Notes: generated from the sequence alone by a model not told the origin. Counted from the first letter of the stretch, positions 11,133-25,847 are shown. The stretch: DNA of 64,000 nucleotides from Nitrososphaerota archaeon (GCA_041641295.1 JBEPYO010000001.1:1152001-1216000), one strand, 5' to 3'. A program made the numbers and translations.

Positions 11133-12185
11133 ATGAACACTCAAAGAAGACTAACACCAGAGGAGAAGGCTATACTCTTAGAGGCCCTGAAAATTGGAGT
11201 GGAGAAGGGCTATGGATACCACCGGGTTTGGAAGATGTTGAAGAGAAATATGGTGGAGGTGTCGAGGAGCATCGTAAGGTCCTGGTATTATAGGATTTTT
11301 CCGGAAAGGGTTAGAAGAAGGGGCGAATGCCTTCCAAGATAGCTAAGGATAAAGCTGTACGAGGAAGTCCTGAGGCTGAGGAGGCAAGGCCTAGGATATA
11401 AGAGAATTAAGAAGAGGATCAAAGAAATGTATGGAGTCACTCTTAGTCCCGCGGTGATTGCTGATTGGTGTCGCGGAGTTCACACACCGTTCGGCGGAAT
11501 ACGGATCCCTACAATAGACTTCCTAGACCCATCACCAGAGCTAGCATATGTCATAGGAGTTGTTGTTGGAGATGGGTGGGCCGTCAAAAGAAGTGGAAGA
11601 AGCGGAGAGTATAGGATCAGCGCTAAGGTTAAGGACCGAGACTTCGCGGAAGAGTTTTCGAGGTGTTTGGGGAAGGTTCTCGGAAGAGAGCCGCCGAAGC
11701 CAATACCAATGAAGGATGAGAAATATAGGGTGCGTGTCAATTCAAATGCACTGTATAAACTATTACAAAAACCCATAAACATAGACAAGATAAGACTATT
11801 CGTAGAGCACACCAGAGACTGTACACGGAGTTTTCTGAGAGGGTTCTTCGACGCTGAGGGCTCGGTAACACTCGACGGCGACATTTACTGCTACAATACG
11901 GATCATAGGCTTCTCGAATATACGCGAAGACTCTTAGGCCTTTTAGGGATAAAAACCACAGATCCAAAGATAAGAACAAAGAAGGGTACTCTAATTAAGG
12001 ATTGGAAGACAGGAAAGACGTACATAAAGAAAAAAGACGTTTACTATCTCTATGTTAGGGCAGACACTAAGCTTAATTTCTACAAACATGTAGGATTCAC
12101 AATACAAAGAAAAAGGCAACGTCTCGAAGAATGTCTAAAGCGACGTGGACTACTAAATGTACCACTTAACCAGTCCTCCTCCTAA
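11133..12185 (+). pseudogene. Free-standing HTH + two-motif LAGLIDADG homing endonuclease, interrupted by an in-frame TAG at 11340..11342
   Basis: ORFs 11133..11342 and 11427..12185 share a frame. Read-through gives ..CLPR*LRIKLYEEVLRLRRQGLGYKRIKK..MYGV. LAGLIDADG helices LAYVIGVVVGDG and FLRGFFDAEG; C-terminal FYKHVGFTIQRKRQRL. Confidence 0.85.
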
Positions 12186-12234
12186 TCATAGCTCTCCTAA
12201 ACCTCCCCTCGTATTCATTTACAACATAAAGATA

Positions 12235-12309
12235 CGGGCCCGGAGGGACTCGAACCCTCGACCTCCGGCTTAGAAGGCCGGCGCTCTATCCATGCTGAGC
12301 TACGGGCCC
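12235..12309 (-). tRNA. tRNA-Arg(TCT), no intron, no encoded CCA
   Basis: GGGCCCG/CGGGCCC acceptor, CCGGC-CTTCTAA-GCCGG anticodon arm, GAGGG-TTCGAGT-CCCTC T arm. Confidence 0.97.
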
Positions 12310-12445
12310 ACTCCAAGGCCTCTACAAATTTTTCCTCATCTGACAGAATATATATGTGTGGGAAGAGCTGTATTGGTCGTTGGGGTCATTTAGAGCTTAA
12401 TCCTGTCCTAAACTGTGTCGGTGTGGGTTGGGGGTCTTTTACTTT

Positions 12446-12608: not shown

Positions 12609-14045
12609 CTATGTGTTTATTACAGGGACTTTACACGATCCAGTGATTATGGCTTTTAGTCTGTTCCAGTTTTCGGGTATGAGTGAGAGGTAGATGTGGG
12701 CGAAGAAGACTCCGGTGAATAGGTAGAAGATGAGTAGGTGTAGGGCCCTGACGTTGAGTCCTCCGCCGAGGAGTGTGAATACCCATGGGAAAAGGTTTGG
12801 ATAAGCCATGGCAAAGCCTGTAAGTCCGAAAATTACTAGGGCTATGAAGTAGAACCATACCAGGGGCTTCTGTAGTGAACAATATTTCCTGTACATGTAG
12901 TATGTTTTGGTTTTGGCGTCGTATACCGCGTGTGGTGGATATTCTTTTGTTAATCCTAGAAAGTTTTTGACAATAGTAAGTGTTACATAGATGTCGTCTC
13001 TAGTGAGCAGTAATAGCTGTCTCCACTCACCCTTTCTGATCATGGAGTAGGTGTGAAGGGGGATGTCAGCTATCAGGATTGCAAAAGCGGACCATATGTG
13101 TATGTCTCTGCTTTGCCCGCCGAAGAGGGGTAGTTTGAACAGCATGCTTAACCCTGTTATAGTCATAACGGTTAATACAGCGACCCTTATCCAGTGCGCT
13201 ATCCTGGCTTCCCTGATATGTCTTTCGAGAAGGACTGTCTCACTGTGGTGGGGTTTTTTCCAAGCCCTCCTCCTTACCAGATGGGCTAAAACACCTGCCA
13301 CTGCCACGTACCAGGCATAAGGCCCGTATTCTGAAACTGCTCCATAGAAGTCAAAAACCGCTTCAGCCTTTCCTACAAATTCTTCTCGGACGAGAACTAT
13401 GACGTATGAGGCCATATCGGTTGCGCGGTGCTCTATTCCTTTACCAAACTGGCCTATAGCAAAGCCTATGCCTACAGGCCTTTCAAGCGCTAGCTCCAGC
13501 ATATTTCTTGCATCAATGGCGAGTGGCCTAGCTCCCTCAACCACGCAGCGCCCGTCACTGCACTCCATCTTTGCAATCACGTTGCTTACGAGACCCAGCT
13601 CTTCGTATAGTATCGGTTTTGCGGGTCCTGGTAGGATGGCTTCCTTGGCATGGTTGTCCCCATAGGATGGGCTGACGAGTATAGCGTAATCGGGGGCCTC
13701 CTCACTACCCATATGTGCTTGGTCTCCGTCAGGGTCAAACTCTAAGCCAAAATAGTCGCGCGGAGTTGGGCTAGGGCTCTCGAAGATGGCTAAGAAGTAT
13801 AGGTGTTGGTCATCGTGTTTGAAGGCGATGCTGGCTTTTGTAACAGATTCTCTGAAGAGCGGTACGTCATCCCATTCACCCTCCGAGATAATACCGTCTA
13901 TGACCGGTGTTTTCTTGGCGGTGTATGCCCTGATCACTACTGCTTGTTGAGCAAAAGTGATGTTAATAACTAAAAGAAGTGCAAGGACTAGAATTATTGG
14001 AAAAAATAATAGATGTTGGTGTTTGGGGAGGTTTTTTATGTCCAT
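12609..14045 (-). CDS. Fusion of an exported DOMON/CBM9-like (ethylbenzene dehydrogenase gamma-like) heme domain to a Ni/Fe-hydrogenase-type diheme cytochrome b
   Basis: Signal peptide; TPVIDGIISEGEW, FKHDDQHLYF, DYFGLEFD, AHMG, VEGARPL (DOMON-like). C-terminal TM helices carry four His (RIAHW, DIHIW, ALHLL, FAHIY) and YCSLQK (cf. YNPLQK). Confidence 0.75.
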   Translation of the reverse strand: MDIKNLPKHQHLLFFPIILVLALLLVINITFAQQAVVIRAYTAKKTPVIDGIISEGEWDDVPLFRESVTKASIAFKHDDQHLYFLAIFESPSPTPRDYFGLEFDPDGDQAHMGSEEAPDYAILVSPSYGDNHAKEAILPGPAKPILYEELGLVSNVIAKMECSDGRCVVEGARPLAIDARNMLELALERPVGIGFAIGQFGKGIEHRATDMASYVIVLVREEFVGKAEAVFDFYGAVSEYGPYAWYVAVAGVLAHLVRRRAWKKPHHSETVLLERHIREARIAHWIRVAVLTVMTITGLSMLFKLPLFGGQSRDIHIWSAFAILIADIPLHTYSMIRKGEWRQLLLLTRDDIYVTLTIVKNFLGLTKEYPPHAVYDAKTKTYYMYRKYCSLQKPLVWFYFIALVIFGLTGFAMAYPNLFPWVFTLLGGGLNVRALHLLIFYLFTGVFFAHIYLSLIPENWNRLKAIITGSCKVPVINT

Positions 14046-15532
14046 GGCTGCTCTCTTGCCGCGTTTCTACCGGCGACCCTGCCGAAGAAGATGGCCTCGC
14101 CTAGATGGGATATGAGTCCTTCTGCTACGACGTCTCCTGCCGCGTAAAGCCTCGGGATTGGTTTGCCATTGACATTGATTACGCGCGACTCGGCGTCAGC
14201 CAAAAGACCACCGTTGGTCTCAGATATGCTGGGCACAAGCTCGACCGCATAGAACGGCGGTGTCTGAATCGGCGAAAACGTGAACTCGGGTGTGTCTACT
14301 CTACCAAAGTCGGGATCCTTCTTGTCTGTCCTAGCCCATTCATTCCATGATTCTACTGTCTTCAAAAAGTTTGCCTTGTTAACTTTTATCGCTTCAGCCA
14401 ATGCCTCAAGCGAGTCAGCCCTTATCACGATGCCCTGGGAGATCTCTTTTGAAAGGTCCTCAGAGAAAGCGGTGCTTATCCCTTTTCCCGTGCTTTTCTT
14501 CACCTGTTCGCTGTCTGTGATGAGCCACGCGTGGCTACCGGGCTGGTAGAATATCTCCTCATTTAATATGTCGAAGTGGGCTCCCTCGTTGACAAATCTA
14601 TATCCTTTTTCGTTGACGAAGATTGCTGATATTCCTCTATACCTGTATCTTGAGTTGATCTTTGCTATGGCGGGGAATCCGCTGATGTGGTATGTGTTTA
14701 TTATCGCGGCTCCTAGGGCTTGGGCCATTAATAGGCCGTCGCCTGTACTTACAGCCGAGGTTATTGGGACTGCGTGATATCCTACTGGGCTGAGGTGTTT
14801 AAGCAGGTCTTTGTTCGCGGAGAAACTGCCTGTTGTTAGTATCACTGCTTTACGGGCCTTGACGAAGACTCTACTCCCATTACGCTCCCCAACAACGCCC
14901 ATAACCATGGTTGTATCTGGACGTGCAACCAACTGTACAACCTTCAACTCTGTCTCAACCCTTACTCCCTTCTCCTTCGCGGCTTTCTGTAGTGCTGAAA
15001 CAAGTGCTGAGCCTCCTCCCTTAGTCCTTAACGACGTAGGTGTTACCGAGTCGTACTCCACCCCTAGCGTGGGAAGCCAGTCTCCAACCTCTACTCCCAC
15101 ATTCTCGACATATTTCATGTCCCTGTCTGGGAAAGGTGGTTCCCAATGAGTCGCCCGCATCAACCCCTGCACTCCTTTATACCATTGGGCGGGGTCGGTC
15201 TGCATGTTTTTCTCCTTTTGGATGGATGAGTTGATAACACCTAGGTTTCCGCCAGACATTACGCCGTTGCCTCCTGGCGTCGAAGACTTATCAATTACAA
15301 TAACGGATGCACCATTAGTGGCAGCCTCTATGGCTGCGGCCGAGCCGGCGACCCCAAAGCCAACTACAACCACGTCAGATTCTAGATCCCATCTCTCAGG
15401 AGGCCTCCAGTAGACGGGTTGTACCTGCTGAAAAACTGCCCAAGACCCTCCTACAGCGGCACCGCCTACAACAACGCCCGCGGCTAGACCTTGGAGAAAC
15501 GACCTCCTGCTAAAAACGGGTTTCTGGGACAT
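14036..15532 (-). CDS. Tat-exported FAD-binding oxidoreductase, flavocytochrome c/fumarate reductase flavoprotein superfamily (FAD_binding_2); substrate unknown
   Basis: SRRSFLQG twin-Arg plus hydrophobic helix; DVVVVGFGVAG, TGDGLLMAQALGA, RFVNE, TNGGL, IPRLYAAGD, FFGRVAG. Start ATG 15532 (or GTG 15550). Confidence 0.88.
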   Translation of the reverse strand: MSQKPVFSRRSFLQGLAAGVVVGGAAVGGSWAVFQQVQPVYWRPPERWDLESDVVVVGFGVAGSAAAIEAATNGASVIVIDKSSTPGGNGVMSGGNLGVINSSIQKEKNMQTDPAQWYKGVQGLMRATHWEPPFPDRDMKYVENVGVEVGDWLPTLGVEYDSVTPTSLRTKGGGSALVSALQKAAKEKGVRVETELKVVQLVARPDTTMVMGVVGERNGSRVFVKARKAVILTTGSFSANKDLLKHLSPVGYHAVPITSAVSTGDGLLMAQALGAAIINTYHISGFPAIAKINSRYRYRGISAIFVNEKGYRFVNEGAHFDILNEEIFYQPGSHAWLITDSEQVKKSTGKGISTAFSEDLSKEISQGIVIRADSLEALAEAIKVNKANFLKTVESWNEWARTDKKDPDFGRVDTPEFTFSPIQTPPFYAVELVPSISETNGGLLADAESRVINVNGKPIPRLYAAGDVVAEGLISHLGEAIFFGRVAGRNAAREQPWT

Positions 15533-15569
15533 TTTCCGCGTATATTCCACTCAGGCCTAAGATTTTAAC

Positions 15570-17459: not shown

Positions 17460-17924
17460 TCAAAGGCTCGCGTCGGTCTTCAGTATACGCGTCCACGTAC
17501 CCGATTCACCCGCAATACCCACTTCCTGCCACACCCTCACATCTCTCTTCAGCCTATGGCTTAGCAAGCCCTTAAAGAAGCCCTCATGGAAACTACACTC
17601 AAACACCCTCCCAAGCCCCGGCAACTGGCCACAGATACTGCAGTCAGATATCTTGATCGTTAATGGGTCCCGACTCACAATTTCGAGCCTCCCTAACACA
17701 AGCCTCCGCCACATCTCTGAGAGATAATTAAACACTTCCACCGGATCAGCCAGCTGTATGGACTCAGAAGCTTGACGGCCCATCTCCTCACCCAGCCTCC
17801 TCAACAAGTCCTTCGAACTAATCGCGAACTCTCTTTGCAAAGGATTGATAGCGGGGGAGAAGAACGCAATAGTGCTGACAATATCGCGCCAAAAACCCTT
17901 CTCCTCAACACTTAGCGAGGTCAA
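17460..17924 (-). CDS. Stand-alone V4R (4-vinyl reductase) domain protein
   Basis: LRRLGEEMGR, LGRLEIV, IKISDCSIC, ECSFHEGFFKGLLS, WQEV; Cys pattern of V4R. Confidence 0.75.
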   Translation of the reverse strand: MTSLSVEEKGFWRDIVSTIAFFSPAINPLQREFAISSKDLLRRLGEEMGRQASESIQLADPVEVFNYLSEMWRRLVLGRLEIVSRDPLTIKISDCSICGQLPGLGRVFECSFHEGFFKGLLSHRLKRDVRVWQEVGIAGESGTWTRILKTDASL

Positions 17925-24267: not shown

Positions 24268-25847
24268 ATGAGGATGAGCGAAAGATACTTGCATTAAGGT
24301 TTGTCGTAGTGGCGTTGATTTTCTTCGCTCTTGCTGGAATTGAAGGGATATTGATGAGGCTCAGAATTCTAAATCTCCTCACAGACCTCTTTGATGAGCG
24401 GCATTTCTACTCCATGATGACTGCCCACCCATTCGTGGGCATCTATGGCTGGGCCTACATGGCGGTAATGGGTGCATTTTACTTCTTAGTCCCCTACGTG
24501 TTGAAGAGAGATATCTATAGCAAGCGAGCCTCCTATGCGAGTTTCTGGCTTATGATCTCTGGGCTCGCCATTATATGGACCACTACATTTGTAACCCACT
24601 ACGCTCCCCTCTACACCCTCTACTGGCCTATACCAGTCGCGGTGGAGTTGGCTGGCTGGAATCCGGCGGCAATATTCTCTTTCGGAGTGGGTGTGGCACT
24701 AGTTTTAGCAGCTGTACTGGTGTTCTTCTTCAACATGTTCGCGACAATTTTTCTCCCCGCTAGGGTTGAGATGAATGGGGGTGAAAAGGTAGGTGCTGGC
24801 TATGTTTTCAAGGAGCTCATGCTCACGGCATTCAACCTCGATAAACTCTGGGCCAAGGTGAGGGGTATCCCACATTACACAGCAAGAGTATTCAACTATC
24901 CGGTCTTCGTAGTCTCGGTGTTTAGGGGTTGCGTCGACACTACTCTAAACGCACTCGTGATAGGCGGTGTTGGAGTGCTCTTAGCCCTTTTCGGTGCCGC
25001 CCACCTGTTTTCAGGCTCCTCCCTGAGCTACTCCCTGATCGACCCGCTAGTCTACAAGAATGTCTTCTGGTGGGGCCTAGACTTAATTGCAGACGGTAAT
25101 GTCCTCATATTCACAGCCGGGACCTGGTATCTCCTCGTACCGCTGCTTCTGAATAGACAGCTATACGGCGAATCAGTTGTAAGGACTGTCATTCTTGCGG
25201 ACCTAGTTGTATCGCTGTTCGTCTGGAATCATCACATGCTGGCAGATACGCCACAGCCCCTTGTCCTACAGATCCAAGGCCAGATCTTTACTTGGGGAGA
25301 ATTGATAACTATGGGGCTTACAATGTTCGCGGTACTAGCTACTATCTGGAGGGCTAGGCCGGTCAAGTACTCTGCCCCGCTGAAATTCGTCCTAGTTTCT
25401 ATAACTGGGTATGCTATAGGTGGTTTGGCGGGGATAATACAGGCAAACTATGCCTCGAACCGCTTCTTCCACAATACCCAGTGGGTAATCGGGATTCATG
25501 GTCATATTCAACTTCTCGTTGGGCTTTCGTTGACGATTTTCGCGGCAATTTATGCCCTGTTCCCACTCCTCACCGGGAAAGCCCTCAACGAGAAGCTTGC
25601 AGATGCCCACTTACTATTGATGGGTGTTGGCGGGGTTGTGATGGGTCTTGCTATGGGGTTGGCGGGTACACAAGGCATGCTGAGGAGAACCCTCTACCCG
25701 ATGGGCCTCGGAATATATGAGCCATACATGGGTGTAGCGCTTATTGGGGCTTTGATGATGGCAGCCGGGTTCGCCGTATTCATAATTAACGTCGTCAGAA
25801 CAGTTGGACTAGGCTCGCTGGTGAAACTCTTTCTACCCCAAAAATAA
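24264..25847 (+). CDS. Heme-copper oxidoreductase subunit I, B-family-derived, gNOR-like putative nitric oxide reductase
   Basis: About 12 TM helices; MTAHP (low-spin heme His), LYTLYWP, WNHH (metal ligands), HNTQWVIGIHGH (HxH), GMLRRT; helix VI reads IADGNVL instead of GHPxVY. Confidence 0.82.
   Translation: MNEDERKILALRFVVVALIFFALAGIEGILMRLRILNLLTDLFDERHFYSMMTAHPFVGIYGWAYMAVMGAFYFLVPYVLKRDIYSKRASYASFWLMISGLAIIWTTTFVTHYAPLYTLYWPIPVAVELAGWNPAAIFSFGVGVALVLAAVLVFFFNMFATIFLPARVEMNGGEKVGAGYVFKELMLTAFNLDKLWAKVRGIPHYTARVFNYPVFVVSVFRGCVDTTLNALVIGGVGVLLALFGAAHLFSGSSLSYSLIDPLVYKNVFWWGLDLIADGNVLIFTAGTWYLLVPLLLNRQLYGESVVRTVILADLVVSLFVWNHHMLADTPQPLVLQIQGQIFTWGELITMGLTMFAVLATIWRARPVKYSAPLKFVLVSITGYAIGGLAGIIQANYASNRFFHNTQWVIGIHGHIQLLVGLSLTIFAAIYALFPLLTGKALNEKLADAHLLLMGVGGVVMGLAMGLAGTQGMLRRTLYPMGLGIYEPYMGVALIGALMMAAGFAVFIINVVRTVGLGSLVKLFLPQK

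Follow-up and report, generated by a model that had tools for sequence, protein, structure and literature searches.

Fumarate-reductase-like enzymes that act outside the cytosol are described as using flavin mononucleotide (FMN)-binding or c-type cytochrome modules (PMC8238504). These exported flavoenzymes are an emerging, large and mostly uncharacterised reservoir of bacterial respiratory chemistry. To our knowledge, archaea mostly lack the machinery for c-type cytochromes and for flavinylation, and we know of no description of how they wire such enzymes. For the gamma subunits of the EB_dh type, a single extracytoplasmic heme b at the end of the electron chain is described; that of EbdC, from ethylbenzene dehydrogenase, is Met/Lys-ligated with a midpoint potential (Em) of +256 mV in the same account (PMC8840923). 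The archaeal ecto-cytochromes FoxC and CbsA are reported to carry an EbdC-like domain in which both Met and Lys are kept (PMC13741234). Here we analyse a 64,000-nucleotide window from the genome of a Nitrososphaerota archaeon (GCA_041641295.1, JBEPYO010000001.1:1152001-1216000), in which two overlapping genes (12609..15532, minus strand) encode a twin-arginine flavoprotein of the fumarate reductase fold and a fusion of an EbdC-like domain with a hydrogenase-type cytochrome b. We propose that the products of the pair form a self-contained oxidoreductase that is bound to the archaeal cell membrane and would act on its outer face. An electron wire of this kind, irrespective of the direction in which it runs, is likely; for a wire that leans to substrate oxidation and feeds an aerobic chain, we put the chances as evenly balanced. 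The observations of an initial annotation of this stretch were confirmed, and its interpretation, a minimal wire between quinone, b hemes and flavin coupled to an organic compound outside the cell, is partly supported.

Gene pair and flavoprotein

The flavoprotein gene (14036..15532, minus strand) encodes 498 residues. The open reading frame (ORF) also opens from a GTG at 15550 (14036..15550); the 498-residue form follows the ATG at 15532 (MSQKPVFSRRSFLQ...), where all close orthologues start. The second gene (12609..14045, minus strand) encodes the fusion protein of 478 residues and was characterised by its ORF, an alignment of nine orthologues and an AlphaFold2 (AF2) model with a predicted local distance difference test (pLDDT) value of 77. 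The end of the flavoprotein gene overlaps the beginning of the fusion gene by 10 nt (14036..14045, minus strand; shared sequence ATGGACATAA), with GAG CAG CCA TGG ACA TAA read over ATG GAC ATA AAA, in agreement with the overlap given in the initial annotation. The overlap has the identical length at four orthologous loci (L024, L025, L026 and L027) and suggests translational coupling.

The host is an archaeon of hot springs with a genome of 1.56 Mb (93.8% complete). Close relatives (87–94% identity) carry the source labels Nitrososphaerota, Caldarchaeum or Caldarchaeales archaea. The neighbourhood of the pair was surveyed in 76 genomes of the same order, with flavoprotein orthologues accepted at E ≤ 1e-60, and the pair is conserved. 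Eight genomes encode the flavoprotein, the same eight encode the full-length fusion, and in 8/8 they lie side by side on one strand; neither gene is found in 67 of the 76. Such linkage, confined to the same 8/76 genomes and with the genes next to each other in each, goes far beyond chance. Seven Caldarchaeales loci from genome contigs show the same two-gene arrangement. The distribution of the cassette is patchy, with three of eight genomes in the genus (including that of the window), two of seven in a second genus and three of 13 in a third. In one genome of the same genus (G166, contig C23, loci L008/L020), only decayed, frameshifted fragments of the fusion are present (residues ~161–296, 337–387 and 386–477), and no flavoprotein orthologue was found genome-wide at E ≤ 1e-60; there, the cassette seems to be in decay. 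In G231 (contig C36, loci L007/L019 and L023), one of the eight genomes with both genes, the fusion gene breaks into two frames near residue 396, owing to a frameshift or to an assembly error, next to an intact flavoprotein gene. The flanking genes are common within the genus and differ between families, which identifies the two-gene pair as the unit. They encode GH38, LAGLIDADG and pyridoxal phosphate (PLP)-decarboxylase proteins here and glycerate kinase-like, deoxyhypusine synthase, radical SAM, LysX-like and other proteins elsewhere. The neighbouring genes across the loci gave no hint of the substrate.

The flavoprotein matches Pfam FAD_binding_2 (PF00890; 2e-45, residues 53–472). The best relative in the PDB is flavocytochrome c3 (1qo8; 2.7e-51, residues 52–493), followed by urocanate reductase (6t85; 4.1e-43) and delta4-(5alpha)-ketosteroid dehydrogenase (4at0; 1.8e-38). 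The twin-arginine signal region comprises residues 1–38 (15419..15532, minus strand), with the motif SRRSFL at residue 8 (SRRSFLQGLAAGVVVGG) and R9 and R10 encoded at 15503–15508. The Arg pair is nearly invariant among 20 homologues, and TatC, of the twin-arginine translocation (Tat) system, is encoded in the genome (128 bits). The protein contains no Cys, which rules out an Fe-S cluster and a c-type heme (CxxCH) in this subunit; no CxxCH is present in either protein of the cassette. The description of gene 1 as a twin-Arg flavoprotein of the fumarate reductase fold lacking both kinds of centre was therefore correct. The FMN-binding domain PF04205 has no match in the flavoprotein at E ≤ 0.1. 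NCBIfam scores were used as a stand-in for phylogenetic placement against FccA, UrdA, TcuA and KstD, and all models remain below their curated cutoffs: flavocytochrome c (TIGR01813) at 230.9 bits with a cutoff of 285.45, the KstD-type models PRK12844 (184, cutoff 789) and PRK07843 (161.5, cutoff 788), and TcuA (PRK08274; 173.6, cutoff 369).

The catalytic residues of fumarate reductase are presumably His365, Arg402, His504 and Arg545. In the alignment with 1qo8, QAHPT is replaced by ISGFP (Phe286 at the His position), TTRD by AHFD (Phe320 at the Arg position), HHTMGG by SETNGG (Glu438 at the His position, a replacement also seen in the 6t85 alignment) and NRLGG by SHLG (His476 at the Arg position). 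All four motifs as initially read (ISGFP, GAHFD, SETNGG and GLISHLG) are correct. The equivalent of Arg381 is retained as Arg295. Because the catalytic residues of fumarate reductase are all replaced, fumarate and urocanate are excluded as substrates; judged by these residues, the substrate is not fumarate, succinate or urocanate. The column equivalent to the proton donor Arg402 holds Phe in seven of nine members of the Caldarchaeales clade and Ser or Ala in the others, and the next-nearest homologues (~36% identity) have Tyr at this position. Validated cinnamate reductases of three clades are described as lacking the active-site Arg and having a conserved Tyr instead (preprint 10.1101/2022.12.26.521950). 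The earlier doubt about fumarate and succinate thus stands in that the catalytic set is lost, but the missing proton-donor Arg alone does not exclude enoate reduction. Enoate reduction in general appears less likely, and, with neither an Arg nor a Tyr as proton donor, the chemistry of this clade may be new.

The fused EbdC-like domain and cytochrome b

The fusion protein begins with a signal peptide or anchor (residues 1–35; 13941..14045, minus strand), which contains a hydrophobic segment (8–40) and is helical at 11–30 in the AF2 model built with the nine orthologues. In this model, a beta-sandwich (~36–223) is followed by a long helix (233–259) and four further transmembrane helices (278–302, 311–337, 392–414 and 429–455). 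The sandwich (residues 36–223; 13377..13940, minus strand) was assigned by fold and profile comparison as an exported EbdC/EB_dh-like domain of the DOMON superfamily. Its top fold match is ethylbenzene dehydrogenase's gamma subunit, EbdC (2ivf_C; VIA Z 18.6, root mean square deviation 2.4, 174/214 aligned; Foldseek 4e-7), and the gamma subunit of nitrite oxidoreductase, NxrC, also matches (7b04_C; Z 17.5). Weaker VIA matches are those to CBM9 modules (Z 12.9–13.5; Foldseek 7e-7 to 1e-6) and to cellobiose dehydrogenase cytochrome domains (Z 9.3–11.0). In the ESM Atlas, the domain matches EB_dh-named clusters with 0.92 by features and a template-modelling (TM) score of 0.78 by structure. Sequence and profile searches of PDB sequences with the fusion protein and the domain family gave no match at E ≤ 10, and the relation to EbdC was thus found by fold comparison. 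In profile alignment, hhalign relates the domain family to archaeal PF09459 proteins with a probability of 98.3% (E 1.4e-14, 201 columns). Fold and profile comparison together bear out the exported DOMON/EbdC-like domain of the initial annotation.

The candidate heme ligands of the domain are Met112 (13710–13712), His206 (13428–13430) and Met211 (13413–13415; all minus strand). Residues 30–240 were searched with HMMER (E ≤ 0.001) against 1.84 billion representative proteins, of which 41 matched. Among these, 32 were scanned with Pfam; the orthologue P0009, the 69-residue P0142 and seven proteins longer than 800 residues were excluded. Two matches (P0134 and P0135) are fused forms with Ni_hydr_CYTB, and many unfused relatives consist of a signal peptide, the domain, a Ser/Thr-rich stalk and a C-terminal anchor. 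Three FG-GAP repeat proteins among the matches are probably spurious repeat matches. Across the distant relatives, the candidate ligands Lys76, Met112 and Met211 are nearly invariant and His206 is present in most. Met112 is found in all nine orthologues and in 12 of 13 distant relatives, among which His111 and His77 vary. Of the candidate ligands initially placed in the motif AHMG, Met112 is thus retained, but not the variable His111. Within the phylum, 50 of 401 genomes carry PF09459, and the controls Sulfolobus acidocaldarius and Haloferax volcanii are also positive. An alignment of nine archaeal PF09459 proteins of the same phylum has M137 as its only invariant Met and K247 as its only invariant Lys, and hhalign places Met112 on the invariant Met. 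On these alignments, the M137/Met112 column would be that of the EbdC ligand Met. In the divergent paralogue P0141, Met112 and His206 are lost and Met211 is kept; this joint loss mildly favours Met112/His206 as the ligand pair.

The linker helix (residues 233–259; 13269..13349, minus strand) is an extra transmembrane helix, followed by the sequence RRRAWKK; H255, R258 and R259 are invariant. With this helix and its positive patch, the exported domain can join a cytochrome b that has a cytoplasmic N-terminus. The C-terminal part (residues 273–469; 12639..13229, minus strand) is a four-helix diheme cytochrome b of the FdnI/HyaC type, as assigned by PF01292, TIGR02125 and fold match. Ni_hydr_CYTB (PF01292) is the only Pfam family found on the fusion (47.6 bits, cutoff 30.1), besides a weak match to DUF4405. 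TIGR02125 covers residues 278–469, and the NCBIfam equivalog cutoffs are missed (31.4 against 121.5; 21.5 against 115.85). The VIA match of the bundle (model residues 276–461) is E. coli hydrogenase-1 cytochrome b (6g94_A; Z 10.2). Four His residues, H284 (13194–13196), H316 (13098–13100), H436 (12738–12740) and H450 (12696–12698; all minus strand), are invariant in the nine orthologues and lie on helices 278–302, 311–337 and 429–455, two of them on the last. The earlier reading of a four-His hydrogenase-type cytochrome b agrees with these data. We take the placement of the four His, with 14-residue spacing on the last helix, to be the FdnI ligand pattern. By helix position in the model, H316/H436 would lie near the outer face and H284/H450 near the inner face. 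A conserved cytoplasmic insertion of ~50 residues (338–391) separates cytochrome b helices 2 and 3, with N361, F362, H372, R386, K387, Y388, C389, S390, Q392 and K393 among its invariant residues. Such an insertion is not expected in a standard Ni_hydr_CYTB protein, and it may help to form the quinone site.

Unfused relatives of the domain in Nitrososphaerota/Nitrososphaerales also have a PF00890 gene in 4/4 loci. It lies 143 bp upstream of the domain gene at L028, ~0.3 kb downstream and intact at L030, ~0.2 kb downstream and split into two overlapping frames at L029, and 3.7 kb away with unrelated genes between at L031. Tat motifs are present in the translated flavoproteins of L028 and L030. 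The split gene (L029:7572-9432) corresponds to an intact 613-residue flavoprotein (L030:7599-9440), and the split is probably a sequencing frameshift. In a FastTree phylogeny of 124 flavoprotein homologues (unrooted, with long-branch warnings), the Nitrososphaerales flavoproteins fall outside the Caldarchaeales clade, in two parts of the tree; this scatter suggests repeated recruitment of the same partner. PF00890 genes are absent from two Heimdallarchaeota loci and from 6/6 metagenome loci of domain relatives. After unfused domain genes lies a conserved polytopic membrane protein of ~210 residues that has no Pfam family (L030:4480-5115, Nitrososphaerota; L044:5721-6353, from a 227-kb metagenome contig). 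The two copies share 28% identity (E 4e-18), and the protein is possibly a membrane partner of the unfused domain, reminiscent of CbsA/CbsB. Also at L044 (6424-8249), genes for an ApbE flavin transferase and an RnfB-like Fe-S protein adjoin the stand-alone EbdC-like domain gene. Upstream at L030 is a 331-residue fragment of a NiFe-hydrogenase large subunit.

Around the cassette, a tRNA-Arg(TCT) gene (12234-12310, minus strand) and a free-standing ORF with a LAGLIDADG_3 domain (11427-12185, plus strand) lie directly downstream. At a locus of the same genus (L021), neither the LAGLIDADG nor the GH38 gene has a match in the 5.3 kb of downstream sequence, so that synteny is lost at the 3' end of the cassette, which may be an insertion hot spot. 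A 154-residue ORF (17460-17924, minus strand) that has no Pfam family and is 88% identical in loci of the same genus sits between the PLP-decarboxylase-like gene and genes for a 2-oxoacid:ferredoxin oxidoreductase. One of three heme-copper oxidase subunit I homologues of the genome (214 bits) is encoded in the window at ~24291-25757, ~9 kb from the cassette.

Proposed electron path and alternatives

We propose that the flavoprotein would be folded with flavin adenine dinucleotide (FAD) in the cytoplasm, exported by Tat and docked on the EbdC-like domain of the fusion. The domain would hold one heme b, ligated by Met112 and His206 (or Met211), which would sit above the outer heme of the cytochrome b (bP; His316/His436). 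The inner heme (bC; His284/His450) would adjoin a quinone site at the cytoplasmic face. The electron path would then be FAD, ecto-heme b, heme bP, heme bC and quinone, in either direction, involving neither an Fe-S cluster nor a c-type heme. The substrate would be a small organic molecule outside the cell. In the oxidative direction, the cytoplasmic-side quinone site would make the enzyme one half of a proton-motive redox loop, like formate dehydrogenase-N. If this is true, a two-polypeptide respiratory enzyme would run on b hemes and flavin only and conserve energy by a redox loop. The cassette is a candidate for a compact, thermostable wire of two directly expressible genes, cysteine-free in its flavoprotein, which would hold three b hemes and one FAD. 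The EbdC-like subfamily defined here, previously unannotated and with 41 representatives among the 1.84 billion proteins, has an altered ligand set, which bears on the tuning of heme potential in DOMON-superfamily cytochromes.

Several results weigh against this proposal and are considered here together with the alternatives they bear on. Prediction of the complex (flavoprotein 40–498, domain 34–232, FAD and heme) gave a score of 0.00 and a mark of 0.32 in a single job lacking controls, which counts neither for nor against an interface. The AF2 model of the flavoprotein, also built with nine orthologues, is poor (mean pLDDT 50.8) and unfit for a fold search, and active-site geometry taken from it is unusable. 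The domain lies below every Pfam EB_dh and DOMON threshold (EB_dh is absent at E ≤ 0.1, and in G000 at E ≤ 1e-5), and EB_dh occurs below threshold in five of the 32 scanned relatives (19–28 bits, cutoff 33.3). In the second motif initially proposed to hold ligands (EHRATDM), Arg207 stands at the column of the EB_dh ligand Lys and varies in the family (R/K/L/T/A/M/S); its neighbours His206 (one before) and Met211 (four after) are conserved. As the Lys is not conserved, heme binding rests on Met112 and the family-specific His/Met. His206 lies in a loop of pLDDT <50 in the AF2 model. Low pLDDT is common for ligand loops modelled without the cofactor. The missing Lys, the lack of a Pfam heme-domain model at threshold, the strong CBM9 fold matches and a GH38 alpha-mannosidase gene 1.8 kb away in the window would all suit a heme-free, CBM9-like module for carbohydrate or surface docking, with the flavoprotein an oxidase using O2 or a soluble acceptor and the cytochrome b in an unrelated role. 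We regard this as improbable: EbdC and NxrC score clearly above CBM9, the invariant EB_dh Met is conserved and aligned and is lost together with His206 in P0141, the GH38 neighbour is not kept at other loci, and the fusion to a diheme cytochrome b with adjoining redox enzymes makes a redox role simpler. The domain is more readily seen as a divergent EB_dh-type cytochrome b in which the ligand Met would be kept and the Lys swapped for His206, or possibly Met211. Still less probable is that the two genes are inherited together without exchanging electrons, the fusion being a stand-alone transmembrane reductase (e.g., of Fe(III), as in CYBDOM) and the flavoprotein having its own partner. Eukaryotic DOMON-cytochrome b561 proteins are reported to act alone as ferric reductases (PMC10784552, PMC10784544), and at L048, one of the distant fusions of the same architecture (35–40% identity), the upstream gene is unrelated and no flavoprotein adjoins. 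The other two, L046 and L047, have 308 bp and 74 bp of upstream sequence and carry little weight here. The fusion can thus serve other partners. Co-occurrence and adjacency in 8/8 genomes with overlapping frames, the absence of the flavoprotein from the genome with the decayed fusion (G166) and the independent association of the domain with other PF00890 genes in Nitrososphaerales all speak for electron exchange between the two proteins.

The direction of the proposed wire is the more closely balanced matter. We lean slightly to oxidation over reduction. The same wiring may run in reverse, from quinol through the cytochrome b and its three b hemes in all to FAD and an extracellular organic acceptor, e.g., of the enoate type, which we rate as unlikely while taking it more seriously than the two alternatives above. 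Most characterised secreted PF00890 enzymes, in the accounts available (preprint 10.1101/2022.12.26.521950; PMC8238504), are reductases (of fumarate, urocanate, methacrylate and cinnamate), the active-site Arg is not universal in those described, and the Tyr of the ~36%-identity homologues resembles that of the validated Tyr-type reductase clades. A heme of the EbdC type at the potential reported in PMC8840923 would take electrons from quinol more readily than give them to quinone, making delivery to a low-potential quinone uphill and the reverse favoured. Against reduction and for oxidation stand the Caldarchaeales clade itself, which has neither known proton donor, and a host that looks aerobic: the genome (93.8% complete) encodes three heme-copper oxidase subunit I homologues, and no PF00384 molybdoenzyme was found in it. 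The PF01292 scaffold classically takes electrons from periplasmic dehydrogenases. Outward flow from a cytoplasmic-side quinol site would, assuming FdnI topology, consume membrane potential.

Comparison with known systems

The initial annotation did not recognise the architecture as a described complex, and no description of it was found in the literature searched, outside which an earlier mention of bacterial DOMON-cytochrome b fusions may exist. The membrane part shares with FdnI, HyaC and PhsC (PF01292) the four-helix, four-His diheme scaffold, presumably with the same ligand pattern, that links a periplasmic enzyme to quinone. It differs in the extra N-terminal transmembrane helix, the fused ecto-heme domain and the ~50-residue insertion between helices 2 and 3, and it is paired with a flavoprotein where those work with a hydrogenase, formate dehydrogenase or thiosulfate reductase. 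With the gamma subunits EbdC, NxrC, DdhC and SerC, the exported domain shares the fold, profile homology and the ligand Met. Here, however, the Lys is replaced, His206 and Met211 are conserved, a membrane cytochrome b is part of the same chain, and a flavoprotein takes the place of the Mo-bisMGD alpha and Fe-S beta subunits, in a genome where no PF00384 protein was found. CbsA (cytochrome b558/566) of Sulfolobales and FoxC are likewise described as archaeal, outward-facing, anchored b-type cytochromes with an EbdC-like domain (PMC13741234), the relation to CbsA being one by description. Both keep Met/Lys in that source; their clusters are those of a bc1 analogue or of Fe(II) oxidation, whereas the cassette here contains a flavoprotein. 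The CbsA-like Ser/Thr stalk and C-terminal anchor are seen in the unfused domain relatives, and the window protein has no Ser/Thr stalk.

Eukaryotic CYBDOM, as described in PMC10784552 and PMC10784544, is alike in stacking an outward-facing heme b of the DOMON fold on a transmembrane cytochrome with two hemes, and fungal cellobiose dehydrogenase is alike in passing electrons from a flavin to a DOMON heme. The membrane module here is PF01292 and not the six-helix eukaryotic b561, and the flavoenzyme is PF00890 and not GMC; both are analogues, non-homologous in their membrane and flavin parts. For the flavoprotein, the comparable systems are bacterial. The methacrylate reductase of Geobacter, Mrd, reportedly works with the cytochrome c Mcc. 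FccA (fused tetraheme c), UrdA and Listeria FrdA (flavinylated FMN-binding domain), Mrd/Mcc and Cgr2/Cgr1 resemble the present pair, in the accounts available, in having an exported FAD_binding_2 subunit, a separate or fused carrier and a two-gene operon logic (PMC8238504; 10.1101/2022.12.26.521950; for Cgr, PMC5953540). In contrast to FccA and UrdA, the proteins here have no CxxCH and no FMN_bind, and the catalytic residues of fumarate and urocanate reductase are gone. The host is an archaeon, and the predicted carrier is a b-heme domain of the EbdC fold, joined to a diheme cytochrome b. The combination of an exported fumarate-reductase-like enzyme with a modular electron carrier is already known; what appears new here is a third kind of module. 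More tentatively, and with somewhat less than even confidence, we suggest that EbdC-fold ecto-cytochromes b with ligands switched to His/Met or Met/Met are the archaeal (Thermoproteota) counterpart of the bacterial multiheme-c and FMN-binding modules, a general docking and electron partner for diverse Tat flavoenzymes, of which the Caldarchaeales fusion would form a respiratory redox loop of b heme and flavin.

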